Below are positions 1-16,250 of a DNA stretch of 16,250 nt, piece by piece; the first letter of the stretch is position 1; the number at the start of each line of letters is the position of its first letter. The translations under genes were made by a program, and so were the position numbers. Source of the stretch: Deltaproteobacteria bacterium (GTDB lineage: Bacteria > Myxococcota_A > UBA796 > CAJQPC01); the NCBI GenBank assembly GCA_016706815.1, contig JADJIW010000040.1, positions 1 through 16,250 of the forward strand, written 5' to 3'. The notes below the pieces were generated by a model that worked only from the letters and a program-made list of their open reading frames with translations, was not told the DNA's origin and ran no database searches.

Positions 1-49
1 GAAGCTGTGATTCTACATGGCGTGTGCGCAGAACGCGGCGAGACTACAA

Positions 50-586
50 TCAATCCCCTGCCGCCGGGAGCGAAGAGCACTGGTGCGGAGCAGGGGGTTC
101 GAAATGCGCACCAACGTTGTCCTCAATAACCACCACATCACCCAACCTCGTCAAAGGCGGCCAGATGGGCAGGCCCTCGGCGGCCGCCGCGCTCGAAAGG
201 CGTAGATCGAAGGTCACAAACATGAACGGTTCTCCTCGGTCCGCGCTCACCGTGAGGGCGCTCGCGAGGTGAAGCGCGTCCAAGGCGCGCAGGCCGTGGG
301 TCTCGGCGAGCGCGGCGCCGTCGTAGGCCAGCGCATCGTTCACCGCCACGAGCACAGGAATGGTGGCGAGCTGGGCTTGGGCGCGCGCCTTGGTCCGGGC
401 GTAGCTGCGGTTGTTGAGTCGGTGATCCCGGTGAAGCCGAGCGAGGGTGGCGAGAAGCTCAGTGATCGCGATGACGCTCGTCGCGATCTCTTCAGCGCTC
501 GACAACGTCTGTACAACGGCGGCGCTGTCGGGCTCGGCGACAAAGAGCTTCACCAGGGCTGATGTGTCAACGTAAATCCGCTTCAC
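50..586 (-). CDS. vapC: PIN-domain ribonuclease toxin of a type II TA pair (VapC-like). The C-terminal ~35 codons are compositionally atypical.
   Basis: The ORF-track protein MKRIYVDTSALVKLF... has the PIN signature: an acidic residue near the N-terminus (D7), ITELL, LDALHLASAL and FVTFD near the C-terminal end. The start ATG overlaps the stop of the upstream small ORF by 4 nt (ATGA at 583-586). The portion 5' of nt ~160 has high GC3. The last ~35 codons (nt 50-160) have GC3 near 50%, so the true stop may lie upstream. Confidence 0.7.
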   Translation of the reverse strand: MKRIYVDTSALVKLFVAEPDSAAVVQTLSSAEEIATSVIAITELLATLARLHRDHRLNNRSYARTKARAQAQLATIPVLVAVNDALAYDGAALAETHGLRALDALHLASALTVSADRGEPFMFVTFDLRLSSAAAAEGLPIWPPLTRLGDVVVIEDNVGAHFEPPAPHQCSSLPAAGD

Positions 587-807
587 CGGCCACGCTCACG
601 CAGGAGCAGCTCGCTGGCGGTCTCCCCGTCCCCATCCAAAGGCTCCGGCGTGAACTCCTGGTCTTGAAATCGCGCGCCTGTTCCGTCATTCAGCAGATAT
701 TCGACCTGCCGGTGCCGGGCAGGGAGTGAGCCAAACGAGCGCGTGACCTGCGCCGTGACATGACGACGAGCGGCGCTCGGCTCGCCCTTCAGCTTGGAGT
801 TGGCCAT
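583..807 (-). CDS. Putative antitoxin partner of the PIN toxin (about 75 aa, MANSKLKGEPSAARRHV...)
   Basis: The internal ATG at 805-807 is preceded by GGAGGAAG 5 nt upstream. The ORF track's longer version from 864 has no RBS. There is a 4-nt overlap with the vapC start, and the size and position are typical of VapB/Phd-type antitoxins. I could not recognise a fold from sequence. Confidence 0.55.
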   Translation of the reverse strand: MANSKLKGEPSAARRHVTAQVTRSFGSLPARHRQVEYLLNDGTGARFQDQEFTPEPLDGDGETASELLLRERGR

Positions 808-870
808 GATCTTCCTCCGGGGGGACGGTCTACACCCCCCAGCATAGCGCCACACCCCCAACAAACGCCA

Positions 871-2404
871 CTACGCGGGCACCCCCGCCGCCACCGTCAA
901 CGCCGGCCGCGGCGACTCCTCCCCGCGCGCCGCCCGCGCCACGGAGTGCGGCGCAAACTCGGCGAACGCCCGCTTGTAGTCGGCGAAGGCGCCCCCCGCG
1001 CGCACCGCGTGCATCACCGCGAGGCCGGTCTGCGCGTCGCCCTGGGCCAACACCGCCTCCACCCAGGCCCAGCGGGCGGAGGTGGCGCGCAGCTCGACGC
1101 GGCCGCGGCTGGGCTTAAACGCCGTCTCCAGGCGCTTGAGGCGGGACTCCACCACCTTCAGGCCCACGAAGCCATCGTTGAGCATGGGCGTGTTGAGCTT
1201 GGGCACGAAGGGCGCCATGCCGATGGCGACGGGGTGGATCGCGCCGAGCTCCAAGGAGAAGCGCACGAGCTCGTCGAGATCGGCGTCGGTCTCGCCGGGC
1301 ACGCCGATCATCATGTAGACCTTGAGCACCTTGTAGCGGTGCTCGGCGGCCTGGCGGGCGCAGTCGATGAGGTGCTGCTCGGTGGTGCCTTTGGACATCT
1401 CCCGGCGTAGGCGCTGGCTCGCGGCGTCTGAGGCCACGGTGAGGGTGCTGTAGCCGCCTTGGCGCAGCAGCTCGGCGATGCGGGGCTTGCGGGCCACACG
1501 GTCGGCGCGCAGGGAGCTGATGCCGACGCCCTTTCCCGGCGGCGATCAGCGCCTCTAAGATGGGCACCAGCTCGGGGTGATCGGAGATCGCCGCGCCGAC
1601 GAGGCCCACCCGGGGGGCGTAGTCGGGGACGAGGGAGAGCACGCGGTCGGCGGTGACCAGGCGCATCCCGCCGTTCGTGCTGCGGCGCATCACGCAGAAG
1701 GTGCACTGGCGATGGCAGCCGCGCTCCCCCTCCAGCAGAAACATGCTGGAGAGCTCGGCGTCGGGGGCGATGATGCGGCTGCGGGCGGGGAGCTCGGCGT
1801 CGGAGGCCTTGGCGATGGTGGGCAGGCGGTCGCCGTCGCGCTCAGGCAGGTAGCCGCCGGGCAGGGCGGCCACGGCGGCGCGTAAGGCGTCCAAGCCGCC
1901 GGAGATCGCGGCCTCGACGGCGGGCACCACCGTCTCTTCAGCCTCGCCCAAGAGCATGGCGTCGACAAACGGCGCGGCGGGGAGCGGGTTCGAGAAGGTG
2001 AGCGGGCCGCCGAGCAGCACCAGCGGGTCGTAGCCCGTGCGATCTTCGCGGCGGGCGGGGATGCCCGCGAGCTCAAAGGCCGTCAGCATCCCGGCCAGCT
2101 CAAGCTCGTAGGCCAAAGACACGCCGATGATGGGGAAGTCCCGCAGCGGGGTCTGCGTCTCGTAGGTGCACAGGGGCAGGCGGGAGCGGCGCCAGGCGTC
2201 TACGTCGTCGGGTAAAAACGCGCGCTCGACGGCGAACCCGGCGCGGGTGAGCAGCTCGTGAATCCACTGGAAGCCAAGGGACGACATGCCCGCGCGGTAC
2301 GGCGAGGGGTAGAGCAGGGCCACGCGCGCCTGACCGGGGGTGAAGCCCGGCCCACGCTCGCGGGCGAGGCGCTCGACGATCGGCTCGTTGTGCTTCCAGG
2401 GCAT
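871..2404 (-). CDS. B12-binding-domain radical SAM enzyme. The reading frame is split by a 1-nt insertion near 1529-1531 (pseudogene or sequencing error).
   Basis: Two ORF-track pieces (1115..2404 and 871..1497, minus strand) form one protein. The N-terminal part has a B12-binding-like region (RVALLYPSPYRAGMSSLGFQWIHELL) and a radical SAM CxxxCxxC motif (GCHRQCTFCVM). After ...ILEALIAAGK the 429-aa frame turns into Arg/Pro junk. The other frame continues with typical radical-SAM core sequence (...RKPRIAELLRQGGYSTLTVASDAASQRLRREMSKGTTEQH...). Removing one C from the CCC run at 1529-1531 joins them as ...AAGKGVGISSLRADRVARKPRIAELL.... The start ATG at 2404 has AGGAAG 5 nt upstream. Confidence 0.8.
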
Positions 2405-2481
2405 AGACTTCCTGCGAGGGGGGATGTACAGGTTATGAAGGTTCGAGCCCGCGCGCCCGCGCCTGTGAGGATTCTCCCCCT
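2405..2481. promoter_or_regulatory. Divergent intergenic region between the radical SAM gene and the secreted-protein gene; presumed promoters
   Basis: A 77-nt gap between divergent starts. GAGGA lies 12 nt before ATG 2482. No clear sigma70 hexamers could be assigned. Confidence 0.3.
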
Positions 2482-3216
2482 ATGCTGTCGTCCCTCGCCG
2501 TGCTGCTCCTGGGTCTAGCCCCCGCTGAGGCCGCGGAGTCCGTCTCCCTCCGTTACCTGCTCGCCGTCGATGGTGAGGTCATCGGGCACCGCGATCTCAA
2601 GATCAACTACCTGCCCACGGACTCCGGCGAGCTGCGGCTCATGGAGTCGTTCACCGAGCTCACCTTCTCCATCGCCGGGCAGCCCTACACCTACAAGCAG
2701 CGCCTCGGCGGCCTGGGCGGCGGCAACTTCAGCTCGGCGATCAGCGACAACGGCACCGGCCGCGAGGTGCAGGCCGTACGATCCAGCCTCGGCTGGACGG
2801 TCACCGTCGCTGAAGGCAAGACGGCGGAGGTCTACGCCTTGGGCCCCGCGGCCTTTGACCTCACCTCCCTCTCCTTGCTCGATCCCGCCGTGGCCGAGAG
2901 CCTCGCCGGGCGCAGCACGCTCAAGGTGCTCGTCGCCGAGACGGGCGGCGTGATGGAGGGCCCCCTTCGCCAGGCCGCCGACGTGCAGATCAAGCTCGGC
3001 GGCCAGATGATCACCTGCGACGAGTACGTCTGGAGCGTGCCCGAGGGTGAGGTCCGCCTGGACTACGGCCCTGAGGGCCACCTGATGCGCTACACCACCC
3101 GGGTCGCGGGCAAGGTCATCACCGCGACGCTGGACCGCCCTCCCCCGCCGCGCACCTACGGCACGACCATGGACGGGCCGCTGATTCAGTCGAGCGTCGG
3201 CGAAGAGACGCTCTAA
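2482..3216 (+). CDS. Secreted hypothetical protein (244 aa) with an N-terminal Sec signal peptide
   Basis: MLSSLAVLLLGLAPAEA|AESV... is a classic signal peptide with an AxA cleavage site. GC3 is high throughout. I recognise no domain. Its stop codon (3214-3216) overlaps the stop of the convergent FAD-subunit gene. Confidence 0.7.
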   Translation: MLSSLAVLLLGLAPAEAAESVSLRYLLAVDGEVIGHRDLKINYLPTDSGELRLMESFTELTFSIAGQPYTYKQRLGGLGGGNFSSAISDNGTGREVQAVRSSLGWTVTVAEGKTAEVYALGPAAFDLTSLSLLDPAVAESLAGRSTLKVLVAETGGVMEGPLRQAADVQIKLGGQMITCDEYVWSVPEGEVRLDYGPEGHLMRYTTRVAGKVITATLDRPPPPRTYGTTMDGPLIQSSVGEETL

Positions 3217-4181
3217 ACGCCGCTGATCGCCGCTTCAAGGGCCCGGCGCACCTCAACCCGCACCATCTTCTTGCGCCAGGGCGCGGGCCAGACATGCGTC
3301 GAGAGCGGGCTCACCTGCTTATACGCGGCCTCGGCCACGGCCTCGACGCCGCCCGCCTCCCAGGCCTCGGCCACGCCGCCCAGCTCCACCGGGCGCGGGC
3401 CCACAGACGAGACGACCACACGGGGGCCCCGATCCGGGTCAAAGGCCGCCGCCGTGAGCAAGAGCGGGTAGTCGATGCTGCCCCGGGCGCGCAGCTTGCG
3501 GTGAACCACACGGCCCGCGGGCGGCGGGGGCAAGATCACGGCGGTGAGCAGCTCATCCGGGGCGCGGCGGATCCAGTCGCGGCCATCGTCGCCATACAGC
3601 GCGGCGACGGCCACCCGGCGGGCGCCCCGCGTAGACACCAGCTCGACCTCGGCGTCATAGAGCAGGAGCCCCGGCGCGGTGTCGGCGGAGTGCGCGGCGT
3701 AACAGCCCTTGCCTTTGGGGGCGACGTGGCAGATCGCCCCCTCGGGCGCGCTGTGGCACTTCAAGCAGCCGCCGAGCGCCCCCCGCCAGAACGTCGACTG
3801 GTTGTACCAGGCGCAGCGGGTGTCGAGCATCAGGTTGCCGCCAAGGGTGCCCATGGCCTGAATCGTAGACGTGGCGATGGTGCGTGTGGCGGCGGCCAAG
3901 GCCGGGTACAGGCTCAACACCCGCACGTCCCGACCCACCGCCCGCAGCGTGACGCCGGCGCCGATGCGTAGGCCGCCCGCCTCGGTGACGGAGATCTCTC
4001 GCAGCGCCGACACCCCACCCAGACGGATGAGCGTCGGCGGGGTGAACAGACCGTACTTCATCGAGGGCAGAAGATCCGTGCCCCCCGCGATGAGCCGGGC
4101 CTGGGGGTGGTCGGTCAGCATCTGCGCGGCGTCGGAGACGGCGCGGGGCGAGAGCACAGAGAAGGTCGGCAGCGGCAGCAT
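3213..4181 (-). CDS. FAD-binding (medium) subunit of a molybdenum hydroxylase (CoxM/XdhB/HcrB-like). Carries a Cys-rich insertion.
   Basis: The N-terminus FSVLSPRAVSDAAQML...LIAGGTDLL matches the FAD_binding_5 family start (AGGT motif). It sits 3 nt downstream of the Mo-subunit stop. Residues ~123-160 (nt ~3702-3815) form a C-x15-C-x2-C-x8-C-x8-C insertion. Confidence 0.85.
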   Translation of the reverse strand: MLPLPTFSVLSPRAVSDAAQMLTDHPQARLIAGGTDLLPSMKYGLFTPPTLIRLGGVSALREISVTEAGGLRIGAGVTLRAVGRDVRVLSLYPALAAATRTIATSTIQAMGTLGGNLMLDTRCAWYNQSTFWRGALGGCLKCHSAPEGAICHVAPKGKGCYAAHSADTAPGLLLYDAEVELVSTRGARRVAVAALYGDDGRDWIRRAPDELLTAVILPPPPAGRVVHRKLRARGSIDYPLLLTAAAFDPDRGPRVVVSSVGPRPVELGGVAEAWEAGGVEAVAEAAYKQVSPLSTHVWPAPWRKKMVRVEVRRALEAAISGV

Positions 4182-4184
4182 AGC

Positions 4185-6503
4185 TCAGGCTCCGTCAAAG
4201 GAGGCGCGGCGGGCCTCACGGTCGCGGCGCTCGATGGCCTTGAGCACACGGTCGGGGGTGAACGGCGCCTCGTTCATCCACACGCCGCAGGCGTCAAAGA
4301 TGGCGTTGGCGATGGCGGGCACCGTGGAGAGCTGGGGGCCCTCCCCGGCCTCTTTGGCGCCGAAGGGGCCCTCCTTGTCGTTGGACTCGACGATGATCGT
4401 GATGATCTCCGGCGTCTCAAACACCGTGGGGATCTTGTACTCCAAGATCGACGGCGCCCGGTGCAGACCGTGTTTGGTGTAGCTCTGCTCCTCAGCCAGG
4501 GCCTCGCCCACGCCCATGTACACGCAGCCCTCGATCTGGCCCTCCACGATGGTGGGGTTTAAGGCCTTGCCGCAGTCGTGCGCCGCCCAGATGCGCTCGA
4601 CGGTGACGAAGCCCGTCTCCGGGTCTACCACCACCTCGGCCACCTGGGCGGTGAACGAGTACGCCGGAGACGGCCCGACGGACTGGCGGCGGAAGCGGTT
4701 GCCGATCTTCGGGGGCTTGTAGTGCCCCACAAAGCCTAAGGTGCCGTGGCGCTCTTCAGCGAGCTGCACGGCCTCGGCAAAATCGAGGGCCTTCTCTGGC
4801 GCAGACTCGCGGAACACCTTCCCGCCAACCATCACCACGTCCTCGCCGCCGAGCTTCTCCGCCGCCGCTGCCCGCATCACCGCGTAGAGCTGATCCGCGG
4901 CCATCTTGGCGGCGTTGCCCGCGAAGAAGGTCACTCGCGAGGAGTACGAGCCCAGGTCTACGGGCGTGAGCCCGGTGTCGGCCTCCAACACCACACAGTC
5001 GGTCTCGGGGATGCCCAGGCGCCCGGCGACGATGGCCGCGAGCATGTGGTTAGAGCCCTGGCCGATGTCGGCGGTGCCCGAGAGGATCGACACCCGCCCC
5101 GAGCGGTCGGCGCAGATCTGCACGGCGCTCTGGGGCATCTCCGACTGCACGATCGGGTGCAGGGCCCCGCACATATACGCCGAGGTGGCCAGGCCGATGC
5201 CCCGGTTGGGGCCGAGCTTGCCGCGCTTCTCCAAGTACCCCGAGGCGGCGAGCACCTTGTCGACACACTCTTTGAGCGCGACGGACGTGATGCGCAGGCC
5301 GTTGGAGGTCTCTGTGTCGGGCTCCACACAGTTCTTGAGGCGCAGGGCGTCGGGGCTCATGCCGATGGCGTTCGCGAGCTTGTCGAGGTGAAGCTCTAAG
5401 GCGAAGCGCGGCTGAATCGCGCCGTGGCCTCGTTTGGGGCCGCAGGGCGGGTGGTTTGTGTAGCAGCGGTGGCTCTCAAACTGCCAGTGATCGAGCTTGT
5501 ACGGCAGCGGCAAGAACACGCCGAAGTAGTACGCCGTGACCACGCCGTAGCTGGCGTAGGCCCCGCCCGCGGCCCAGGCCTTAAAGTCGGCGGCGGTGAT
5601 GCGCCCGTCGTTGGTGACGCCCATCTTCAGGGTCATCCGTGTGGGGTGACGGCCTCGGTGGGCATAAAACACCTCCTCACGGTCTAGGATAAACTTCACC
5701 GGGCGGCCGGTCTTTCGCGCCAAGGCCGCCGCGCACAGCTCGTTGGCGAAGGGGTCGGACTTGCCGCCATAACCCGCGCCCACATCGGGCTTGATCACCC
5801 GCACGTCCTGCTCACGCATCCCCAGCACCTTGGACACGATGCGGTGCAGGTAATGGGGGATCTGTGTAGACGACCAGAGGGTGAGCTTGCCGTCTGGGTG
5901 GGGTTGGGCCAGGGCGACCTGGGTCTCCAGGGGCACATGGGTGGAGCCGGGGTAGTCGTAATTCGACTCGATGATCACATCGGCCTCGGCGAACCCGGCG
6001 GCGGGGTCACCGTATTTCTGGAACACCCGGCGTAAGACGTTTGTGTCGCCTTTGCGGCGGCGCTCGTCATGCAGGAGCGGCTTGTCGGGGTTCAGCGCGT
6101 CCTCGATGGTGAACACGCCCTCTAGGGGCTCGTACTCCACACGGATGAGCGCGGCGGCGCGGCGGGCCGTCTCTTGATCCACGGCGGCCACGGCGGCGAC
6201 CTCGTCCCCGATGAACAAGACCTTGCCCACGGCCAAGGCGTGCTCGTCCTGGGCGACGGGGATGACGCCATACGGCGTGGGGAGATCGGCCCCGGTGAGC
6301 ACGGCGTAGACCCCGGGCAGGGCCAAGGCGGCGCTCACGTCGATGCTCAAGATTCGGGCGTGGGCGTGGGGCGAGCGGTTGAAGGCCCCGTGCAGCATCC
6401 CGGGCAAGGTGAGGTCGTCGGTGAAGCGGGCGGCGCCGGTGATCTTGGGCAAGCCGTCGATCTTGCCGCCGCGACGGCCAACAGGCGAATCAGGCTCGCT
6501 CAT
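4185..6503 (-). CDS. Molybdopterin-binding large subunit of a xanthine dehydrogenase/aldehyde oxidase/CO dehydrogenase-family enzyme (772 aa)
   Basis: N-terminus ...GKIDGLPKITGAARFTDDL..., an internal GAGYGGK motif, and an overall length and pattern typical of the Ald_Xan_dh_C/C2 families. The start ATG (6501-6503) overlaps the small-subunit stop (ATGA). Confidence 0.9.
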   Translation of the reverse strand: MSEPDSPVGRRGGKIDGLPKITGAARFTDDLTLPGMLHGAFNRSPHAHARILSIDVSAALALPGVYAVLTGADLPTPYGVIPVAQDEHALAVGKVLFIGDEVAAVAAVDQETARRAAALIRVEYEPLEGVFTIEDALNPDKPLLHDERRRKGDTNVLRRVFQKYGDPAAGFAEADVIIESNYDYPGSTHVPLETQVALAQPHPDGKLTLWSSTQIPHYLHRIVSKVLGMREQDVRVIKPDVGAGYGGKSDPFANELCAAALARKTGRPVKFILDREEVFYAHRGRHPTRMTLKMGVTNDGRITAADFKAWAAGGAYASYGVVTAYYFGVFLPLPYKLDHWQFESHRCYTNHPPCGPKRGHGAIQPRFALELHLDKLANAIGMSPDALRLKNCVEPDTETSNGLRITSVALKECVDKVLAASGYLEKRGKLGPNRGIGLATSAYMCGALHPIVQSEMPQSAVQICADRSGRVSILSGTADIGQGSNHMLAAIVAGRLGIPETDCVVLEADTGLTPVDLGSYSSRVTFFAGNAAKMAADQLYAVMRAAAAEKLGGEDVVMVGGKVFRESAPEKALDFAEAVQLAEERHGTLGFVGHYKPPKIGNRFRRQSVGPSPAYSFTAQVAEVVVDPETGFVTVERIWAAHDCGKALNPTIVEGQIEGCVYMGVGEALAEEQSYTKHGLHRAPSILEYKIPTVFETPEIITIIVESNDKEGPFGAKEAGEGPQLSTVPAIANAIFDACGVWMNEAPFTPDRVLKAIERRDREARRASFDGA

Positions 6504-7015
6504 GTGGACCTCCCGTTCATCCGCTCGCGGGCCTGGCGGGCGGCGGCGAGGATCTTCGTGTAGCCCGTGCAGCGGCAGATGTTGGCGCCGAGCACCTCGT
6601 TGAGCTCGGCGTCGGTCGGGTCGGGCCGCTCGTCAAACAGGGCCTTGAGCGCCATGACAAAGCCCGGCGTGCAATACCCACACTGGGCGGCGACCTGCTC
6701 GTGGAACGCGGCCTGGATGGGGTGCAGCGCGCCGCCGACGGCCACACCCTCGACGGTGAGCAGCTCGGCGTCCTGAGCCTCGGCGGCCAGGGTGATGCAC
6801 GAGAGCCGCGGCGCGCCGTTCACCAAGACCGTACACGCGCCGCAGTCGCCGACGTCGCAGCCGTGCTTGGAGCCGGTGAGGCCGAGGTCTTGGCGCAGGA
6901 GGTTGAGGAGCGTGCGGTTCGCGGGGATCAACAGGCGTCTGCGGTCGCCGTTGACCCTCAGCGTGAGGACCAGATCGTCATCGGGCTCGGTGGGCATGGC
7001 CGCCACTATAACCAA
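6500..7015 (-). CDS. [2Fe-2S]-binding small subunit of the molybdenum hydroxylase (CoxS/HcrC-like)
   Basis: Plant-type ferredoxin motif (GCDVGDCGACTV) plus the second 2Fe-2S motif (CGYCTPG...ICRCTGY). The start is either TTG at 7013-7015 or ATG at 6995-6997; neither has a strong RBS, so the start is uncertain. Confidence 0.85.
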   Translation of the reverse strand: MVIVAAMPTEPDDDLVLTLRVNGDRRRLLIPANRTLLNLLRQDLGLTGSKHGCDVGDCGACTVLVNGAPRLSCITLAAEAQDAELLTVEGVAVGGALHPIQAAFHEQVAAQCGYCTPGFVMALKALFDERPDPTDAELNEVLGANICRCTGYTKILAAARQARERMNGRST

Positions 7016-7030
7016 CGCCGCCGGGGGCGG

Positions 7031-9257
7031 TCAGACGCGCTGGGCGCCTCGGGCGCGGCGCAGGCGATCGGACTCCCCTTCAGCGCGGCGGGCGGCGCGC
7101 ACCTCGTCCTCCAAGCGGCGCAGAGCCTCTCCGGCGGCGGAGACCCGGTCTTGCTCGCCGATCAGCTCTTGGCGGGCTTTGCGCGCGGCGCCGCCGATGT
7201 CGAGGAGCCGCGCCGCCGTGGCCGTGAGCTTGGACTCCCAGCGGGCGTGCTCCTCTAAGGTGGCCTCGCGGTCGGCCTTGGCGGCGAGGAGCTCCGGGCG
7301 CTCGGTGGGGTCGGGGCGCTGACCGGCCTGCTCCATCGTCTCGAGACGGCGGATGCGGGCCTCGATCTGGGCGAGGTCTTGGGCGATGGCCTCGGGGCGC
7401 AGCTCTTTGAGGCGACCATCCAGGCGATCGGCCTCGGCGGCCAGGTCAGCGGCCTCGGCGCGCAGCTCGACGACGGTGCGGCGTAGGTCGGCCTCGGCGG
7501 GGGTGGGCAGCTCGGCCTGGCCGATCGCCAGCTCCAAGGCGGCGAGGGACTCCTCAACCCGGGCGAGGAGCTGGCCGCCGCGGGTCTTGGGCGCAGGCGG
7601 CGCGACCACCGGGGCGGCGACGTTCGGCGGCGCAGGGGCGGCGGCGGCAGGTTCAGCGGCGGCGGCGCCGCGCTCCACACGCACCTGGGGGCGGCTGGCG
7701 AGCAGCTCGGGCAGACGCTCGGGGGTGACGTGGGCGCGCAGGTCGCGGCCATAGGCCAAGGGCACCTTGTCGGCGTTGCGCCCGGCGTTGGAGGCGGTCA
7801 CCATCACGACGACGGAGATGAGGATCATCACCGGGAGCGCCGCCATGGCCGAGCCGAAGGTGAGCCCCACGGCGATGGCCCACAACACCCACATCGGCCC
7901 GAGCAGGTTGGGCAAGGTCCGCATCACGCGGTTCACCCGGCCGTCTTCGTCTTCAGCCCGGCGGCGTTTTTTGGCGACGAAGCCCCGGCTCTCGGCCAAG
8001 GCGGCGAGGTTATCGACGGTGTCTTCGCTCACGCCGGAGACGAGGCGGAAGCGGCGCTGGTCGAGCACGGGGCTCACCAACAGGGCGTCGATGGGCAGCC
8101 CCGCCCGCAGCGCGACGCCGCGGGCGAGGAGCTCGGCGTCGGTGATCTCCGTGGACTCCGCCGTCCACTCTTCAGGGAGCTTGGGCAGGCCGAGCTGCAC
8201 CACCACCTTGTTGATCGCCTCGGCGGCGTAGCGGGCGCTCGTCTTGCCCGCCCGGGCGCTGCGCCGGGCTTGCCTGCGGCTGGCTTGGCTGGAGTGGCGC
8301 AGCTCCAGCTCAAAGCGGCCTTCAGGCAAGGCCAACGGCGCGGGCTCTAAGGTGTAGCTGGGCTGGGGTGGCGGCGGCGGCGGGGGCTCGTCTTTGGGCG
8401 GCGCGCGGCGGTTCTGAGCCCGCGGCGGCGGGGCGACGATGCGCCCACGAAGGGCCTCGGCGACCTCAGCGGCGCCTTGGGGGCGCTCGTCTGGGGAGAG
8501 GCGCAAGAGCGCGTGGATGATGGCGCAGAGGTCGTCCGGCAGCTCCGGGCGCAGGCTGGCGAGGGGCTCGACCTCGCCGGAGAGCTGGCGTTTGAGCACG
8601 GCGGCGGCGTTGGGCCCGGCGAAGGGCGCCCGGCCCTGAAGCGGCGTAATACAGCACCGTGCCCAAGGAGTAGAGGTCGCTGCGGGGGTCGGCGCGCTCG
8701 CCGTCGTAGACCTCGGGGGCGGCGTGCCCGGCGGTGCCCAAGGCCCCGGTGTGCCGGGTGGACTGCCACTGCTCTAGCCGGGCGAGGCCAAAGTCGGTGA
8801 GCGTCGCCACGCCCGCGTCGTCGATCATCACGTTCGCCGGGGTGATGTCGCGGTGCAGCACGCCGGCGCGGTGGGCGGCGGCGAGCACGTCGGCCAGCCG
8901 CGCGCCGATGGCCCGCAGCGCCGTGCCGCCGATGGGGCCTTCAGCGGCCACCCGCTCGGAGAGGGTGCGGCCCGGGTGGTAGGGCATCGACAAGGCGAGG
9001 TGGCCGTCGAGCTCGTGCAGCTCTTGGGCGAGGAGCGCGCCCTCATGTTTGATGAGCCCCGCCGTCATCACCTCGCGGCGCAGGCGCTCCCGGGTGGAGG
9101 CGTCGCCGACGAGGTGGGCGTGGAGGATCTTGAGGGCGACCCGGGCGCCGCGCACCCGATCTTCAGCGAGCCAGACCGTCGCCATGCCCCCACGGCCCAG
9201 CTCACCGATGAGCGTGAACCGCTCACCGAGCACCGCGCCCCGGGCCAAGGCGCTCAA
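7031..9257 (-). CDS. Hanks-type Ser/Thr protein kinase (about 740 aa). Kinase domain, Pro-rich linker, two-helix TM hairpin, long C-terminal coiled-coil. The frame is split by a 1-nt insertion near 8631-8634.
   Basis: The N-terminal piece (8466..9257) has the Gly-loop GELGRGGMATVW, VALK, HRDITPANV, DFG and APE. After DLYSLGTVLYYAASG the frame degenerates. The downstream piece (7031..8599) continues the kinase C-lobe (...AVLKRQLSGEVEP...IIHALLRLSPDERP). Deleting one base in CCCGGCCC at ~8631-8634 restores ...YYAASGRAPFAGPNAAAVLKRQL.... The TM hairpin is LGPMWVLWAIAVGLTFGSAMAALPVMILISVVVMV. The C-terminal 200 aa are heptad-like and Ala/Glu/Arg/Leu-rich. The start is TTG at 9255-9257 with a weak RBS. 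Confidence 0.8.
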
Positions 9258-9333
9258 CCGCGCACCGGAGGCACCCGACCCGAGCTTGTCTGACGCGCCG
9301 CTTCAGTCACTGAGCACTTCCCTCCCCTGCTCC

Positions 9334-10155
9334 CTATTGTGGGGTGGCCGCCGCTGGCAAACCTTTCCCCAAACGGGCCATGGTGACCCACGCGGCGACG
9401 TCATCGACCTCCCAAGAGTTGTCGGACCCACGCCAGAGCAGGCGGCCGTCACCGTCGAGCACCAGGATGTGCAGGCTGTGGAGGATGTCGCCTTGGCTCT
9501 CGACCCGGCTGGCCCCGGCGCGTAACAACAGCGTCTTGAGCGCGTCGAGCTCTAAGCGGGCGAAGGTCCACGTTGCGGGGTTCGCGCCGCGCTCGGCGCC
9601 GTAGGCCTTGAGCACCTCCAGAGAGTCCCGGGCGGGGTCTAGGGTGACGCTCACGATGCGCCCGTGGTCCAGCTCCCCTTGAAGCTCCTTGAGCTTGCTC
9701 GCCAACAAGGGGCAGGCCTCGGGCATGGGGCAAGACGTGAACAAGAAGGTGAGCACCGTCGGCACGCCTTGGCCCGCGCCGATGAGCACCGGGCCGTCCA
9801 CGCCGGGCATCGTGAGCGCCGGGAGCTGCTCGCCTTCGGCCAGGGCGATCACCGCGTCGGGGGCCAGGGCCAGGGGCTCCTCGTGGCCGGTGACCTTGGC
9901 GCCGATGATCCGCACCGTGCCGTCTTCAGCGGTCATCAGGTTCGCCTGGATGAGATCCCCAGGGCGAAGCTGCCGGGCGAGGTTGGGATCGACGACGAAG
10001 GTGGTGGCGCCCTCCTCAAAGGCGCCGGGCACGGGACCGTGCTCCAGCCGCACGCTGTGCTGGCCGACGTCGCGCACCACGCCGTTGACGGAGTAGGTGT
10101 CTCCAGCGACAAAGTTACAGCCGGCCAGAGCGAAGACGGCGATGAGCCCGCGCAT
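9334..10155 (-). CDS. Lipoprotein with an N-terminal CusF-like small beta-barrel domain fused to an SCO1/SenC-like thioredoxin-fold domain
   Basis: ATG at 10153-10155 is preceded by GGAGG 8 nt upstream (the ORF-track start at 10164 is GTG). The lipobox is MRGLIAVFALAG|C. The SCO-family pattern is FLFTSCPMPEACP, ...VTLDPARDS...LKAY..., and a conserved His in ILHSLHILVLDGDGRLL. The N-domain (GVVRDVGQHSVRLEHGPVPG...LRPGDLIQANL) resembles CusF-type metallochaperone folds. Confidence 0.7.
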   Translation of the reverse strand: MRGLIAVFALAGCNFVAGDTYSVNGVVRDVGQHSVRLEHGPVPGAFEEGATTFVVDPNLARQLRPGDLIQANLMTAEDGTVRIIGAKVTGHEEPLALAPDAVIALAEGEQLPALTMPGVDGPVLIGAGQGVPTVLTFLFTSCPMPEACPLLASKLKELQGELDHGRIVSVTLDPARDSLEVLKAYGAERGANPATWTFARLELDALKTLLLRAGASRVESQGDILHSLHILVLDGDGRLLWRGSDNSWEVDDVAAWVTMARLGKGLPAAATPQ

Positions 10156-10239
10156 CAGAGGCACCTCCTGAGGTTGGCAAGCCTATTCACGCGGGCGCGC
10201 CGCGTCGACGGGGCGTCGTGTCGCGGGTAAACTCCTCAG

Positions 10240-10461
10240 ATGCCCGAGTCTCCCGAGATCCCCGCCTCTTTGCCACGACGCGCCCTGCGGCGGGCGGGCA
10301 GAGCCGCGCTCAAGGCTCTGGGCGGCGCGGTGTATTACGCGATCTACCGCGAGCTGCCGAACCCCAACGATCCCGACCCCTACTGGCGTGAGATGCACCC
10401 CGACCAAGACAAAGGCACGGGGCGCCAAGGTGGGGACTTTGAGCCCCCGCCGGGGATCTGA
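10240..10461 (+). CDS. Small hypothetical protein (73 aa)
   Basis: An ORF with genome-typical high GC3 and non-junk composition (ALKALGGAVYYAIYRELPNPNDPDPYWREMHPDQDKG). No SD motif; no homology recognised. Confidence 0.35.
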   Translation: MPESPEIPASLPRRALRRAGRAALKALGGAVYYAIYRELPNPNDPDPYWREMHPDQDKGTGRQGGDFEPPPGI

Positions 10462-10545
10462 GGTCAACGCTGATGCTCGCCGCCGCTGCTGTGGATCGGG
10501 CTCACCGCCTTCGCCCAAGACCCTGGGCCCCTCGTCGGCGACCTC

Positions 10546-12345
10546 TTGGGGCCGATGCCCCCGGCCACGACGCTTCGGGATGTAGACGTTCACCCGGAGT
10601 ACATCCGGCTGCGCTTCACCACCGACCGCGACTTCATCGTTGAGCTGACCCCAAGCCGTGACGGCGCCTCGCCGGTGTGCAGCGGCGGCGGCGCCGATCT
10701 GTACGTGCGCCTCGACCTCGACGCCGATCAAGAGAGCTTCGACTGGGAGCCCCTGCCGCCCATCGTCGATCAGCTCTGCGCCCGGATGGTGGACCACCCG
10801 CCGCGGTTCCCGACCTCGGAGAAGGTGTTGGCCCCCGTCGCGCCGCCGCCCGCTCCCGAGCGCCCGGCGCTGCCGTTTCGACCGATGCACGTCGTCGGCG
10901 TCCTCTGGGCCGTGGCGGTCCTCGCCGCCCTGCCGCGGGCGCCCTTGGCCTGGGGGGTGGGCCTTCTCGCGCTCTTGATCCGCCTGGGGCTCTCCCCGCG
11001 CTGGATCCTCGTCGGCGGCGACGCGGCCTATGAGCGCCTGCTCGACGCGAGGGGGCGCGGCGACTCAAACCCCTACTACGGCGACGGCTGGCAGGGGTTG
11101 ATGGGCCTCGTGTACACGCTCCTGGGCGAGCCCAAGACGACGGACTGGGTTCACCTCACGAACCTCGGCTTCTCGGCCTTGACCGTGGTGGCGCTCGTGG
11201 GGCTGATCTCGGCCTTGGGGGGCAGCCCCCTCGCCGCGGGCCTCGCCGGGCTCGCCCTGGCCGCGGCCCCGCTGCCGGTGCGGCTGGCGGCCACAGAGAC
11301 CGACTTTGTGCTCGTCGGGCTCGTGCAGGTGCTCGCGCTCTACGGCGCGGCGCGTGGGGATCGCCGCGGGGCGGCCCTCGCGGCGCTCTCTGTGGGCCTC
11401 TCCGTTCACCTGCGGCCCCTGGGCGGCGCCTTCGCGCTTCTGCCCTTGGGCATGCTCGCCTGGCGGCGCTCGGCCTGGGCCGTCGTGTTGGGCCTGGGGC
11501 TCTGCGCCTGGCGCGCGGTGGAGCTGCTGCCGCTCGTGCGGGAGGGCAGCGGCGTGGGGGTCATCCCCTTCGGTCGGCTTCTGGAGACGGACTTCTGGGT
11601 CAAGCGCCTCAACCCCTTGGGCCGCGCCCCAGCGCTGCACCTCAGCCCCTTGTGGTCGCCGTTCGCGTTGCCGCTCCTCGCCGTGGCCGCGGTGCAGCTC
11701 TCCAAGCCCGAGACCCGCCGCGTTTGGATCTGGCCTTTGGGCTTGGGCGTCGTGCTCAGCGAGCTGCCGTACCTGCCGAAGACCTCTCCGCTAGGCGATC
11801 CCCTGCGGTTTTTGCTCCCGGCGACGGCGATGTGGGCGGGGCTCGCGGGGTTTGGCGCGGCCTTGGCCTGGGAGGGCGGCGCCAAGGCCCGCCTGGTCCT
11901 GGCGGTGGCGGCCCTGAGCTTCGTCCCCCCATGGCTCTCAGGCCAGCCGCGCTGGACGTGGCAGGTTGAGCACCTGGCCTTCGTCGAGGCCACCCGGCTC
12001 GCCCCCGAAGGCGCCGAGGTGCTCTTTGACCCGGCCTTTGACGAGAACGGCAAGATCAGGATGTGGCTCAACACCCGGGGCGGGGCGCGGTGGCGGCCTT
12101 GGGCGCTGGGAGAGACCCCCGCCGAGGGCGCCTTTGTTTACCTCGGCAGCGCCGATCACCACCGGCGTTTAGCGGCCGGCGGCGCCGGGCCGAGCTTGGC
12201 CCAAGGCTGCGCGCTCACGCCGCTGACCACGATGGACCTGCCGCCCGAGACCGACGGCTGGATTGAGCTCGGCGACGCGCCGATCCCCGCCGGGCTCTAC
12301 CGCGTCGACGCCTGCGGCCAGGGCTCAGGCTCCCCAAACCCCTGA
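10546..12345 (+). CDS. Large polytopic integral membrane protein (at least 9 predicted TM helices) with N- and C-terminal soluble domains. Function unknown; a GT-C-like glycosyltransferase topology is possible.
   Basis: High GC3 over 1.8 kb. Multiple hydrophobic stretches (VVGVLWAVAVLAAL, WGVGLLALLIRLGL, FSALTVVALVGLISALG, LAGLALAAAPL, FVLVGLVQVLALYGA, AALSVGLSV, WAVVLGLGLCAW, FALPLLAVAAV, IWPLGLGVVLS, MWAGLAGFGAALA, LVLAVAALSFV). The start is uncertain: TTG 10546, ATG 10555, or a frameshifted upstream ATG at 10476. Confidence 0.7.
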   Translation: MGPMPPATTLRDVDVHPEYIRLRFTTDRDFIVELTPSRDGASPVCSGGGADLYVRLDLDADQESFDWEPLPPIVDQLCARMVDHPPRFPTSEKVLAPVAPPPAPERPALPFRPMHVVGVLWAVAVLAALPRAPLAWGVGLLALLIRLGLSPRWILVGGDAAYERLLDARGRGDSNPYYGDGWQGLMGLVYTLLGEPKTTDWVHLTNLGFSALTVVALVGLISALGGSPLAAGLAGLALAAAPLPVRLAATETDFVLVGLVQVLALYGAARGDRRGAALAALSVGLSVHLRPLGGAFALLPLGMLAWRRSAWAVVLGLGLCAWRAVELLPLVREGSGVGVIPFGRLLETDFWVKRLNPLGRAPALHLSPLWSPFALPLLAVAAVQLSKPETRRVWIWPLGLGVVLSELPYLPKTSPLGDPLRFLLPATAMWAGLAGFGAALAWEGGAKARLVLAVAALSFVPPWLSGQPRWTWQVEHLAFVEATRLAPEGAEVLFDPAFDENGKIRMWLNTRGGARWRPWALGETPAEGAFVYLGSADHHRRLAAGGAGPSLAQGCALTPLTTMDLPPETDGWIELGDAPIPAGLYRVDACGQGSGSPNP

Positions 12346-12495
12346 CAGGGATCCGCCTGCCGTCGGGATCTGCGCGAAGTGGGGAGCGAGGCCTGAGCGG
12401 GCCCGCCAAGGCGGACAAAGATTGGCGTTTCTTCAGGCGAGAATGATCCGAACCGATGAGGCGCGTTGTCCTCTGAGGTGAACGGAGGTGCCCCC

Positions 12496-12597
12496 ATGTC
12501 TGAATGGAGAGATCGTCTGCTGCGCTGGCTCGACGGGCTGCTCTTTTTCCCCGAGCCAGAGCCCGCCCGCGTTGAGGCCCGGCGGCGCCGTCGATGA
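12496..12597 (+). CDS. 33-codon upstream ORF (MSEWRDRLLRWLDGLLFFPEPEPARVEARRRRR), translationally coupled to the next gene
   Basis: GGAGG lies 7 nt upstream of the ATG. The stop TGA (12595-12597) overlaps ATG 12594 of the downstream gene (ATGA). The first codons use rare low-GC codons (TCT GAA AGA GAT). The ORF is below the ORF-track size cutoff. Confidence 0.3.
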   Translation: MSEWRDRLLRWLDGLLFFPEPEPARVEARRRRR

Positions 12598-13154
12598 ACC
12601 CTGCCTCGCGTGCTCGCGCAAGGGTCGCGCGGGTGACCGCCGCCCCCCACGACCCGCCCCTGCCCCGCCACTTCCACCGCATCGAGGCCCGGGGCCATGT
12701 GGTGTACTGCCTGAGCCCCTTGGCCCCCGCGGAGCTCGTCCAGGCCGGGGGGCTGCCCCGGGAGGCGATCCTCGGCGTCACCGACCGCGACGTCGGGGAC
12801 TGGGCTTGGGGCCTTCGCCCAAACCAGCTCTTCATGGACCTCTTGACCCGCCTGCTCACCGAGCACGCGGAGCTTGAGCCGACGCTCACCCAGGCCGCCT
12901 TGGCGCTGCGGGTGGGCGTGCTGGAGCTCTGGGACGGCCGCGTCGGCTTCTCCCAGCGCGGTGAAGAGGATCTGCTCGGCTGCTTTCAGGTGCGTGAGGG
13001 TCGGCTGATGCCGCGCTCGTTCAACCCCAACCGGAGCTACACCTTGGTGACCGAGCGAGGCGCCATGCGGCTGCCCGCGCGACTTCAGGCGGCTCTGCTC
13101 GCCGAGCTGCGGTCGCTGCGGGTCTTGTGGCCTGGGCCCTCGACGACGCTCTGA
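12594..13154 (+). CDS. Hypothetical protein (186 aa)
   Basis: GC3 is high across the ORF. The overlapping antisense 292-aa ORF is Arg/Gly/Pro low-complexity. No domain recognised. Confidence 0.55.
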   Translation: MNPASRARARVARVTAAPHDPPLPRHFHRIEARGHVVYCLSPLAPAELVQAGGLPREAILGVTDRDVGDWAWGLRPNQLFMDLLTRLLTEHAELEPTLTQAALALRVGVLELWDGRVGFSQRGEEDLLGCFQVREGRLMPRSFNPNRSYTLVTERGAMRLPARLQAALLAELRSLRVLWPGPSTTL

Positions 13155-13207
13155 GGCCACCGCGCCGAGGGTCATTTGCGCGGCGTCGGGTTTCCCCGGC
13201 GTCGCGC

Positions 13208-14161
13208 TCAGGACTCTGGGGCGTCGCTGCCGTTGTGGACGTTCACGATGGTGAGCTGCTCGACGGCGATGCGCACCTGGCCGCTGAGGCGGCGGCGCTC
13301 AAACAGCCGCGCCGCGCCCTCGATGCCCGCTTGGGCCACCTGCTCTCGGGCGCGGAAGAGGTGCAGGGTGAGCAGGCCGGGCTCTAAGGACAACATCCGC
13401 GAGAGCTCATCGGCGTAACGCCAGCCCACCTCCGCGGGGCGAACCCCGGCGGCGAGATCCTCGAGCCGCGCCCGGGCCAAGGCCAAGGTCACGAGGTGAT
13501 GCACCCGAGAGCTGAGCACGATGGCGCCGCCCCGGTGCTTGATCTCCACATCGACGTGCTCTTGGTCCTGGCTCACGCGCAGGGTGAGGGCGATGGTCTC
13601 TAAGCGTGGGCGCAGAGACGTGTCCCAGGTGGTCGGCAGCTCAGCGCTTCGCGGCGCGACGGGCAAGATGAGGCGCCAAGACTCGTCTCCTAAGACGAGG
13701 CGCTGGCCATCGAGCGCCTCGGACTCCAGGCCCTCGTGCTCGACGATCCAGTGGCCGTCGTTGCCTTCGTAGACGATGGCGAGCATCCCGTCGGCGCTGG
13801 GCAGGCTGAGGATCTCGGCCTCCGACACCCGCAGGAGCTGATCGGCCTCTCGGACCGCCGCCGCGCCTGGGGGGCCGTCGTGGGCGAGCACGAAGCCGCG
13901 GTGGGGGCCGAAGCGCACGCTGACGCCGGCGCTGAGCCCGCGACCGCGGCCGCTCTCCAGGCGCTCGCCGTCTACAAAAGTGCCGTTTCGACTGCCCAGA
14001 TCACGCAGTTGCCACTCTTTGCCGGTCCAGCGTAAAGCGGCGTGCTCAGCGCTGATCTGGCGATCGTCGATGCGCACGGCGCAGTGGGCGGCGCGGCCGA
14101 TGAGCGTGCGCGCGCCGAGGGCGATCAGGGCGTGGTCGTCGTCGGATCGGAGAATTCCCAT
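13208..14161 (-). CDS. FHA (forkhead-associated) domain protein, 317 aa, with an uncharacterised ~200-aa C-terminal region
   Basis: The N-terminal FHA signature is LIGRAAHCAVRIDDRQISAEHAALRWTGKEWQLRDLGSRNGTFVDGERL (GR...S..HA...DLGS.NGT.V.G). Confidence 0.8.
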   Translation of the reverse strand: MGILRSDDDHALIALGARTLIGRAAHCAVRIDDRQISAEHAALRWTGKEWQLRDLGSRNGTFVDGERLESGRGRGLSAGVSVRFGPHRGFVLAHDGPPGAAAVREADQLLRVSEAEILSLPSADGMLAIVYEGNDGHWIVEHEGLESEALDGQRLVLGDESWRLILPVAPRSAELPTTWDTSLRPRLETIALTLRVSQDQEHVDVEIKHRGGAIVLSSRVHHLVTLALARARLEDLAAGVRPAEVGWRYADELSRMLSLEPGLLTLHLFRAREQVAQAGIEGAARLFERRRLSGQVRIAVEQLTIVNVHNGSDAPES

Positions 14162-14348
14162 AGGCGGGAACGTAGCACGCTAGGTCACTCTGAACGCCCC
14201 CAACAGACGCCCTTGAGGGCCTGAACCAATCAAAGTCCGCACGATACCCGCCGAAATCAATTGAAAGAGAGGCGGCGAAGCGCCTGATCTATGCTGCGCT
14301 AGGTTCGCGCGGCGCGTGACCCTGCGACCCCCTCACGGAGAATGACTG
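14162..14348. promoter_or_regulatory. Divergent promoter region between the FHA gene and the caspase-like gene
   Basis: A 187-nt intergenic region with locally reduced GC (AACCAATCAAAGTCCGCACGATACCCGCCGAAATCAATTGAAAGAGAGG), containing TTGAAA-like and TTGAGG-like -35 candidates. GGAGA lies 7-8 nt before ATG 14349. Confidence 0.35.
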
Positions 14349-15821: not shown

Positions 15822-16250
15822 GGAACGGGCCACACCACCCGCAGCCCCATCGTTAAAAAATGGCGCTCTGGGGTGCTTCCGAAGCGGGTGGCGAGGCGCT
15901 GGGTCATCGGGGGGGAGCCATAAAAGCCCCCTCGCACCGCGCGGTGGGTGCCCGCCTCTGGGATATCCACCGCTCGCCCAGCCTGAACTGGCCCTCGCAC
16001 CGACCACCAGTTGCGACACCACGTTCGAGCGTTTCCAGCGAGGTCACGCACGCCGTAGGGCTCTCGTCACCCTCCACAGCCCCCAAAGGAAGCATACCGG
16101 GTGGTGAGGGTGAAGAGCCAAGCACCCGCGACCAGCGCGGCTCTATCTCCCGGCCCCAAGGGGTGAATCGCCCATCCACACCTCGCCCGGCCTTCTCGAT
16201 CTCAAGCTCGTTGGGCAGGTGTCCGCCCATCCAAGCGGCGGCGCGCGCGG
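15797..16250 (-). CDS. C-terminal part of an FGE-sulfatase (SUMF1/formylglycine-generating-enzyme-like) domain protein. Partial (start beyond the window). The frame is broken by a 1-nt deletion near 16060-16075.
   Basis: Two minus-strand ORF pieces carry consecutive FGE-family motifs: HLPNELEIEKAGRGVDGRFTPWG (compare LPTEAEWEYAARG...YPWG) in one frame, and PYGVRDLAGNARTWCRNWW...HRAVRGGFYGSPPMTQRLATRFG...MGLRVV (compare GLYDMAGNVWEW...RVVRGGSW...GFRVV) in the other. Stop at 15797-15799. Confidence 0.6.

Follow-up and report, generated by a model that had tools for sequence, protein, structure and literature searches.

What reaction is catalysed by a molybdenum enzyme that is built like 4-hydroxybenzoyl-coenzyme A (CoA) reductase (4-HBCR) and yet falls outside the group of proteins that carry this name? 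The question is raised by a three-gene operon in a 16,250-nt stretch of DNA from a Deltaproteobacteria bacterium (GenBank assembly GCA_016706815.1, contig JADJIW010000040.1, positions 1 to 16,250; here, the window), which has a G+C content of ~70% across its whole length. Judged by sequence comparison, the closest characterised relative of the operon is 4-HBCR, by a wide margin. The enzyme is a variant within the HcrCAB-type molybdenum enzymes rather than a certified 4-HBCR, and we tentatively propose that it removes a ring substituent from an aryl-CoA ester and so feeds the aerobic Box pathway.

RESULTS

The operon encodes an HcrCAB-type molybdenum enzyme

All three genes of the operon are intact. 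They form a trio of closely packed open reading frames (ORFs) on the minus strand and encode, in order, the small iron-sulfur subunit, the large molybdopterin subunit, and the flavin adenine dinucleotide (FAD) subunit (Table 1). This order, with an ATGA overlap at the first junction and 3 nt at the second, had been proposed in a first-pass annotation of the window, and the ORFs and a direct reading of the sequence confirm it, coordinates included. A GGGAGG ribosome-binding site precedes the ATGA, and the junction between the large-subunit and FAD-subunit genes reads TGA-GCT-ATG, with the spacer at 4182-4184. The Pfam domains of the products (Fer2 and Fer2_2 in the small subunit; Ald_Xan_dh_C, MoCoBD_1, and MoCoBD_2 in the large; FAD_binding_5 in the third) and eight [2Fe-2S] cysteines place the complex in the xanthine oxidase, or molybdenum hydroxylase, superfamily.

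Against the Protein Data Bank (PDB), the large subunit scores 605 bits with 1rm6_A; the next structure, a CoxL, scores 305 bits, and PaoC scores ~171. Its Mo-site motifs are TQ (213-214), GAGYGGK (242-248), AHRGRH (281-286), PPCGPKRGHG (352-361), and GAKEAGEGPQ (715-724). Gln214 of the TQ motif and Glu721 of the GEG motif are conserved, and the latter aligns with Glu726 of the Thauera enzyme. The VAYRCSFR-type motif of CO dehydrogenase (CODH) is absent, as the first-pass annotation had stated: a search of the large subunit for AY[RA]CSFR was negative, and the equivalent loop reads NHPPCGPKRGHG. The small subunit has two [2Fe-2S] motifs (Cys 47, 52, 55, and 67; Cys 106, 109, 141, and 143) and is about equally similar to the PDB chains 3hrd_D, 4zoh_C, and 1rm6_C. 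On a reading of its sequence, it has no twin-arginine translocation (Tat) or periplasmic N-terminal extension.

The FAD subunit carries a cysteine loop of the HcrB type

It had been noted that the FAD subunit has an insertion of ~40 residues at about positions 123-160, with five cysteines that nearly coincide with those of Thauera aromatica HcrB. The insertion is confirmed. The match to Pfam FAD_binding_5 extends over residues 6-219 and covers only 168 profile positions, which implies an insertion of ~40-46 residues, and the alignments of CoxM, QorM, and XdhB to the subunit break off at about residue 117 (phmmer, all PDB chains). In the same search, the best match is T. aromatica HcrB (1rm6_B, E 1.5e-51), and E. 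coli PaoB and the FAD subunit of Methylobacillus aldehyde oxidase are the second- and third-best solved relatives.

The subunit has five cysteines in total, at positions 123, 139, 142, 151, and 160, all of them in the insertion. In the alignment with 1rm6_B, Cys123, Cys139, Cys151, and Cys160 pair with Cys122, Cys138, Cys146, and Cys155 of HcrB, which we take, from the title of the structure paper and the numbering of 1RM6_B, to be the [4Fe-4S] ligands of the Thauera enzyme. Cys142 pairs with a tyrosine. The four paired cysteines are invariant in all 121 close database homologues (54-97% identical). In a more distant set, 80 FAD subunits drawn from species-representative genomes across many phyla, 78-79 have them; the loop is thus not a product of chance. 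Cys142 is poorly kept, both among the close homologues (62%) and in the distant set (14 of 80), so that four of the five cysteines, and not the fifth, bear out the proposed correspondence with HcrB.

With its ~40-residue insertion and four ligand-type cysteines, the loop is of the HcrB type and genuinely homologous to the HcrB loop. We propose Cys123, Cys139, Cys151, and Cys160 as the ligands of a putative [4Fe-4S] cluster and regard Cys142 as an extra residue. Most of the 80 distant FAD subunits share the Thauera spacing, C-x15-C-x7-C-x8-C, whereas the window and its nearest relatives have an insert of 2-4 residues between the second and third ligand cysteines (in the window, the four residues HSAP). 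An AlphaFold2 model of the subunit, built from the 121-sequence alignment, has a mean predicted local distance difference test score (pLDDT) of 89.7; the loop is of low confidence, as expected for a cofactor-free model. Foldseek returns 1rm6_B as the best match of the model, with a template modelling (TM) score of 0.91 and a root mean square deviation of 2.2 Å; the TM score with PaoB is 0.78.

The enzyme falls in a large sister clade of 4-HBCR

With Thauera HcrA as the query, 120 proteins of at least 75% identity were retrieved, many of them named 4-HBCR by NCBI. We placed the window in a neighbour-joining tree of 109 large subunits (749 columns) rooted on a single CoxL outgroup. The named 4-HBCRs form a clade with bootstrap 100, and the window lies outside it. 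A sister clade, with bootstrap 87, takes in the window and all 80 genome-derived relatives; within it, the window's own subclade (at least 63% identity) has bootstrap 100. With neighbour joining and this one outgroup behind it, the topology is provisional. Identity to the Thauera proteins is 43% for the large subunit (HcrA, 749 aligned columns) and 37% for the FAD subunit (HcrB).

The subunits were also scored against the NCBIfam equivalog models of 4-HBCR (TIGR03193, TIGR03194, and TIGR03195). No other model scores higher for the large or the FAD subunit, and for the small one the 4-HBCR model comes close to the top, yet all three cut-offs are missed: 837.7 against 994.55 for alpha (TIGR03194), 263.3 against 404.55 for beta (TIGR03195), and 172.9 against 257.8 for gamma (4hydroxCoAred).

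The two clades also differ in residues that each keeps. At 37 positions, the residue is at least 90% conserved within each clade and different between them, and some of these positions lie in or next to the Mo-site motifs (sister clade versus true HcrA: GAGYGGKSD versus GGGFGARTE, GRHP versus GRPW, CGPK versus CGAM, and GEGPQ versus SEGML). The sister clade keeps the CoxL residue at 10 of these positions and the true Hcr clade at 2, from which it follows that the true reductases are the more derived group and that the changes which set real 4-HBCR apart are for the most part missing here.

We conclude from the missed cut-offs, the tree, and the clade-specific residues that the enzyme belongs to a sister clade of 4-HBCR and not to the 4-HBCR equivalog. 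The HcrCAB-like identity suggested by the first-pass annotation thus holds for the gene order, the loop, and the nearest solved relatives, and stops short of the equivalog itself; the large-subunit phylogeny that it called for puts the window beside the Hcr clade, not inside it. Two other identities were rejected. Membership of PaoABC is excluded by the PaoC model NF041671 (261 bits, cut-off 1180), the PaoA model (137 bits, cut-off 322), the cysteine pattern, and the missing N-terminal extension, and Mo-Cu CODH (CoxSML form I) by the absent AYRCSFR loop and by CoxL model scores of ~333-339 bits against cut-offs of 950-991.

The sister clade is widespread. When one genome per GTDB species was scanned with the motifs PPCGPKRGH and KE[AV]GEGPQ, confirmed matches were found in at least 587 species-level genomes. 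The hosts listed are mainly metagenome-assembled genomes (MAGs) and belong to Myxococcota, Planctomycetota, Acidobacteriota, Chloroflexota, Gemmatimonadota, Methylomirabilota, and other phyla; the clade occurs chiefly in lineages with aerobic members. Naming within the clade is uneven: Joint Genome Institute (JGI) annotations often give 4-HBCR subunits, whereas those of NCBI are mostly generic, such as "molybdopterin-dependent oxidoreductase."

Relatives carry aryl-CoA ligase and box genes beside the operon

The gene order small-large-FAD holds at each relative locus whose length allows it to be read. Two contigs that are 88% identical to the window in DNA sequence are syntenic with it. Neighbouring genes were counted at the 80 relative loci (within the series L001-L086) by tblastn, the queries being BoxB, BoxC, BoxR, and ligase sequences of confirmed identity, because our codon-usage log-odds gene caller, trained per locus on the large-subunit gene, proved noisy. 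For around a quarter of the relatives, at least one of aryl-CoA ligase, boxB, boxC, and a BzdR/BoxR-type regulator is encoded no more than 10 kb away. A PaaK-like aryl-CoA ligase of 430 aa adjoins the operon at 18 loci, 13 of which have no box genes. BoxB occurs at 10 loci, BoxC at 8, a 530-aa gene resembling benzoate-CoA ligase at 6, and a BzdR/BoxR-type regulator at 4. NCBIfam scores confirm these identities (BoxB, 714-752 bits, cut-off 499; BoxC, 707-904 bits, cut-off 712; regulators, higher than the cut-off of NF006015).

Within the subclade of the window, three of nine distinct contexts (L084, L086, and L089, with large subunits 68%, 71%, and 74% identical to that of the window) have boxR-boxC-boxB 2-6 kb upstream of the operon. 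Because L086 and L089 share synteny, these two do not count as independent cases. Two further loci, L033 and L034, have two different ligases as well as boxCB beside the operon. Elsewhere, at L028 in an Ardenticatenaceae MAG, the operon is followed by a PaaK-like ligase and a strong PaaA_PaaC match of 209 bits, so that for some members of the clade the linked genes are those of phenylacetyl-CoA epoxidase and not box. The maturation genes MocA or XdhC were found near the operon at 15 surveyed loci.

DISCUSSION

A tentative role in aryl-CoA dehydroxylation

Our preferred, still tentative reading is that the product of the operon dehydroxylates aryl-CoA esters and thereby supplies the aerobic Box pathway. 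The enzyme would be a cytoplasmic three-subunit complex of HcrCAB architecture, containing molybdenum with molybdopterin cytosine dinucleotide, two [2Fe-2S] clusters, FAD, and a [4Fe-4S] cluster. A separate aryl-CoA ligase would activate an aryl acid to 4-hydroxybenzoyl-CoA or a similar para-substituted benzoyl-CoA, and this aromatic acyl-CoA would bind to the large subunit at its Mo site. A ferredoxin-like partner would hand single electrons to the [4Fe-4S] loop of the FAD subunit, and these would run on via FAD and the two [2Fe-2S] clusters to Mo, where the ring substituent would be taken off reductively to give benzoyl-CoA. The benzoyl-CoA would then be used by the aerobic epoxide pathway of BoxB and BoxC and not by benzoyl-CoA reductase. 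The sequences themselves show the set of subunits, the cofactor-binding motifs, the ranking of homologues, the placement in the clade, and the gene neighbourhoods of relatives; we infer what the substrate is, which way the electrons flow and what donates them, and that box genes are present in the window's own genome.

In favour of this proposal stand HcrA and HcrB as the nearest solved and curated relatives, the fold match of the FAD subunit to 1rm6_B, the four conserved cysteines, the conserved Gln214 and Glu721, and the gene order. The HcrB-type loop and the cofactor set suggest a surface [4Fe-4S] cluster that trades single electrons with a protein partner and not with NAD(P). The ligase and box genes that recur beside the operon in relatives make an aromatic CoA thioester a plausible substrate and point to benzoyl-CoA as the node of the pathway; the loci with two ligases and boxCB fit a module that turns one aryl-CoA into benzoyl-CoA. 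Reductive dehydroxylation has a precedent in this family. Besides 4-HBCR, the only reductive dehydroxylase reported among xanthine oxidase family enzymes is the urolithin C dehydroxylase Ucdh of Enterocloster bolteae, a three-subunit enzyme that dehydroxylates a phenol para to an electron-withdrawing carbonyl (PMC12771579). As described, Ucdh uses NADH and a non-CoA substrate, is ~33% identical to 4-HBCR, and comes from an anaerobic gut Firmicute.

Several observations weigh against the proposal. Pfam and neighbour annotation of the window gave no aromatic, CoA-ligase, box, ferredoxin, XdhC, or MocA gene; what the genes around the operon encode is a Ser/Thr kinase, an SCO1/CusF protein, two membrane or secreted proteins without assignment, a radical SAM protein, a PIN toxin, and proteins with FHA and caspase domains, and taken alone the window lends no contextual support. 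The check for ferredoxin and CoA-ligase genes suggested by the first-pass annotation thus came back empty for the window and positive, as regards ligases, for its relatives. The missed equivalog cut-offs, the modest identity to the Thauera subunits, and the clade-specific residues, with the changes typical of real 4-HBCR largely missing, count on the same side. The cultured carriers among the matches listed, Thermogemmatispora aurantia and Saltatorellus ferox, are aerobes. The Thauera 4-HBCR, on the other hand, is oxygen-sensitive and ferredoxin-dependent (PMC12771579). Our literature search found no assayed member of the sister clade, and on a characterised aerobic Hcr-like enzyme, pcmRST, or a link between hcr and box it returned only an incidental SAR324 genome note. 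Lastly, the FAD subunit of E. coli PaoABC, an aldehyde oxidoreductase, also has a four-Cys [4Fe-4S] motif (PMC13404670), so that such a cluster, which the first-pass annotation had linked to reductive flow, is insufficient by itself to indicate it.

Oxidative and reductive alternatives

For this last reason, an oxidative role must be considered: the enzyme could be a molybdenum hydroxylase or aldehyde oxidoreductase, acting perhaps on an aromatic CoA thioester or an aldehyde, in which electrons leave through the [4Fe-4S] cluster, a route that has been proposed for PaoABC, and pass to an acceptor of the ferredoxin or cytochrome type. We regard this as the main rival, less likely than our preferred reading, and it has several arguments on its side. 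PaoB and the Methylobacillus aldehyde oxidase are the closest solved relatives of the FAD subunit after HcrB, and PaoABC (5G5G) and the Methylobacillus enzyme (5Y6Q), which belong to the same family, share with the window enzyme the three-subunit build and a [4Fe-4S] cysteine insertion in the FAD subunit (PMC13404670). The active-site shell looks ancestral, since the canonical GGK, GEG, His217, and Arg221 are kept where true HcrA is derived; the aerobic carriers and the lack of an aromatic-CoA context in the window would also suit an oxidative enzyme. PaoABC, which works oxidatively, is nevertheless a poor match in its details. The cysteine pattern of the window is that of HcrB, and PaoB shares three of the four positions, lacks the third, and uses another residue position instead. 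The large subunit is far closer to HcrA than to PaoC in bit score. PaoA carries a Tat signal, and PaoABC is periplasmic; PaoA is longer (229 aa in 5g5g_A, where the match starts at residue 55), whereas the small subunit of the window has no such extension. Finally, the recurrent linkage to aryl-CoA ligase and boxCB points to a CoA-ester aromatic, not to free aldehydes.

That the enzyme is a genuine 4-HBCR orthologue of anaerobic aromatic catabolism, as in Thauera and Rhodopseudomonas, is improbable. The similarities are considerable: T. aromatica HcrCAB (1RM6/1SB3) and its named orthologues (from Magnetospirillum, Sedimenticola, Rubrivivax, and others) have the same gamma-alpha-beta order, overlapping stop and start codons, and domain set, as well as the Mo-site Gln and Glu and a four-Cys loop at matching positions with the spacing found throughout the sister clade. 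Architecture and loop are thus identical in kind, the large and FAD subunits match the 4-HBCR models and structure best, and JGI labels many clade members 4-HBCR. The window enzyme departs from HcrCAB, however, in the 4-residue insert and fifth cysteine of its loop, in the 37 clade-specific residues, and in its position in a separate clade; it misses all three equivalog cut-offs, lies outside the bootstrap-100 clade, and is 43% identical to the Thauera large subunit where the named enzymes reach at least 75%. The genomic setting differs as well. At true hcr loci, XdhC directly follows hcrB, and PadBCD-like and PaaX genes lie alongside; here there is no XdhC after the FAD gene and no PadBCD-like or PaaX neighbour. 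The anaerobic aromatic genes and ferredoxin of a 4-HBCR-type context are missing from the window, and in relatives PaaK-like and other ligases accompany boxB and boxC of the aerobic pathway and not Pad genes or benzoyl-CoA reductase.

A third alternative, which we regard as a long shot, places the complex inside a Box pathway that lacks BoxA and BoxD. It would oxidise the product of BoxC, 3,4-dehydroadipyl-CoA semialdehyde, at Mo and return the two electrons via FAD and the [4Fe-4S] cluster to the di-iron centre of BoxB; in this way ring epoxidation would pay for itself and need no NADPH. A crude motif screen of the ten loci with boxB and/or boxC found no ORF of at least 250 aa with a ferredoxin-type Cys motif (BoxA-like) or aldehyde dehydrogenase signatures, and Pfam annotation of L084, L086, and L089 out to 10 kb showed neither a Fer4/FNR nor an Aldedh protein. 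SAR324 bins with ligase, BoxB, and BoxC reportedly lack BoxD and have a "4-HBCR" (PMC4782131). Together, these findings raise the idea that the complex might replace BoxD and perhaps BoxA, and many members of the family are aldehyde oxidoreductases. This case is drawn purely from gene neighbourhoods, however, and boxA and boxD could sit elsewhere in the genomes. Moreover, most loci, the window included, have the operon without box genes, and the 13 loci with a PaaK-like ligase and no box genes fit a peripheral funnel better.

An ordinary xanthine dehydrogenase or aerobic CODH, which the first-pass annotation had already doubted, is hardly credible: it would share the superfamily domain set, but the HcrA model reaches 838 bits where those of XdhA, PucD, and CoxL give 330-520, the AYRCSFR loop is missing, and CoxM, XdhB, and QorM lack the 40-46-residue Cys loop.

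The choice between aryl-CoA dehydroxylation and these alternatives matters because the sister clade is large, spans many phyla, is inconsistently labelled in databases, and yielded no assay in the literature. If its members dehydroxylate aryl-CoA esters into the Box pathway, they would provide soil and aquatic bacteria with a hybrid, oxygen-sparing route for phenolic acids, and "hcr" matches in metagenomes should not be taken to signal the anaerobic breakdown of aromatics. Should the clade instead be oxidative, the HcrB-type [4Fe-4S] loop would not be diagnostic of inverted electron flow.

Gene starts and other features of the window

Table 1. Positions of the operon, its parts, and other features, in window coordinates unless a relative locus (L number) is named
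Feature	Position	Strand	Remarks
Small 2x[2Fe-2S] subunit	6500-6997	minus	165 aa from ATG 6997; ORF open to TTG 7015 (6500-7015, 171 aa)
Large molybdopterin subunit	4185-6503	minus	772 aa; Pfam Ald_Xan_dh_C + MoCoBD_1 + MoCoBD_2
FAD subunit	3213-4181	minus	322 aa; Pfam FAD_binding_5; AGGTDL 32-37, TLGGN 112-116
Cys-rich insertion, putative [4Fe-4S] loop	3702-3815	minus	FAD-subunit aa 123-160
ATGA stop/start overlap, small/large genes	6500-6503	minus	direct sequence read; ...GGGAGGTCCACATGAGC
Sigma-70-like promoter match CTGACC-18-TATAGT	7005-7034	minus	consensus match only
boxR-boxC-boxB or regulator-boxC-boxB-ligase beside operon	L084 3945-7863; L086 4362-8314; L089 401-4351		also in L033, L034, L059, L075, L079
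Operon, PaaK-like ligase, PaaA_PaaC match	L028 12483-16161		Ardenticatenaceae MAG
SCO1/SenC + CusF protein	9334-10164	minus	copper-related
Ser/Thr kinase, two ORFs	8466-9257; 7031-8599	minus	frameshift ~8634-8638; single 729-aa gene in L001 (7284-9473)
Radical SAM gene, two ORFs	1115-2404; 871-1497	minus	Radical_SAM_N2 + Radical_SAM; frameshift ~1529-1536; single 509-aa gene in L002 (8672-10201)
Secreted-looking protein	2482-3216	plus	244 aa; no family match
Polytopic-membrane-like protein	10546-12345	plus	599 aa; no Pfam match
PIN-domain (VapC-like) toxin and 93-aa ORF	50-586; 583-864	minus	4-nt overlap; no Pfam match for the 93-aa ORF
FHA-domain gene	13208-14161	minus	
Caspase-domain (Peptidase_C14) gene	14349-15821	plus	

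The small-subunit gene most likely starts at ATG 6997 and not at TTG 7015, because relatives that are 96% identical call the gene at 165 aa. The promoter-like match upstream, one of 2 sites in a promoter scan for which 0.1 were expected in shuffled sequence, ends 7 nt short of this ATG. If this consensus match is real, the small-subunit mRNA would have no leader or a very short one, and TTG 7015 would not be the start codon.

At the other end of the operon, the gene for the 244-aa secreted-looking protein, which is kept in L001 and L002, converges on the FAD gene; the stop codons overlap by 4 nt (3213-3216), and no terminator-like site was found between the two genes. Copper-related genes recur near the operon in the subclade (the window, L003, L084, L085, L086, L089, and L090). 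The window and L001/L002 have an SCO1/SenC + CusF protein, and other relatives have Cu-binding_MopE/FG-GAP genes, one Cu2_monoox_C gene, and an MbnB/HvfC cluster; this recurrence may mean no more than that genomes of this kind have many such genes. MopE-like and response-regulator genes also recur in some subclade relatives, and a link to the operon could not be made.

Two genes of the window are frameshifted. The gene for the Ser/Thr kinase, which lies directly before the operon on its upstream side, is read as two ORFs and is either a pseudogene or an assembly error; its counterpart in L001, 88% identical in DNA, is a single gene. The radical SAM gene is likewise broken in the window and whole in L002. 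Two frameshifts in 16 kb suggest sequence-quality problems or gene decay, though the molybdenum enzyme genes are intact.

The FHA-domain (forkhead-associated) gene is divergent from the caspase-domain gene, and the pair is kept in L001, where it lies beside an FGE-sulfatase-domain kinase. Taken with the number of kinases and the high G+C content, this pair suggests a host of Myxococcota type. The 599-aa polytopic-membrane-like ORF has a 630-aa counterpart in L001 and coincides with a strongly negative AT skew of -0.31 to -0.38 at 10.5-12 kb. The gene for the PIN-domain toxin and the 93-aa ORF upstream of it probably form a type II toxin-antitoxin pair.

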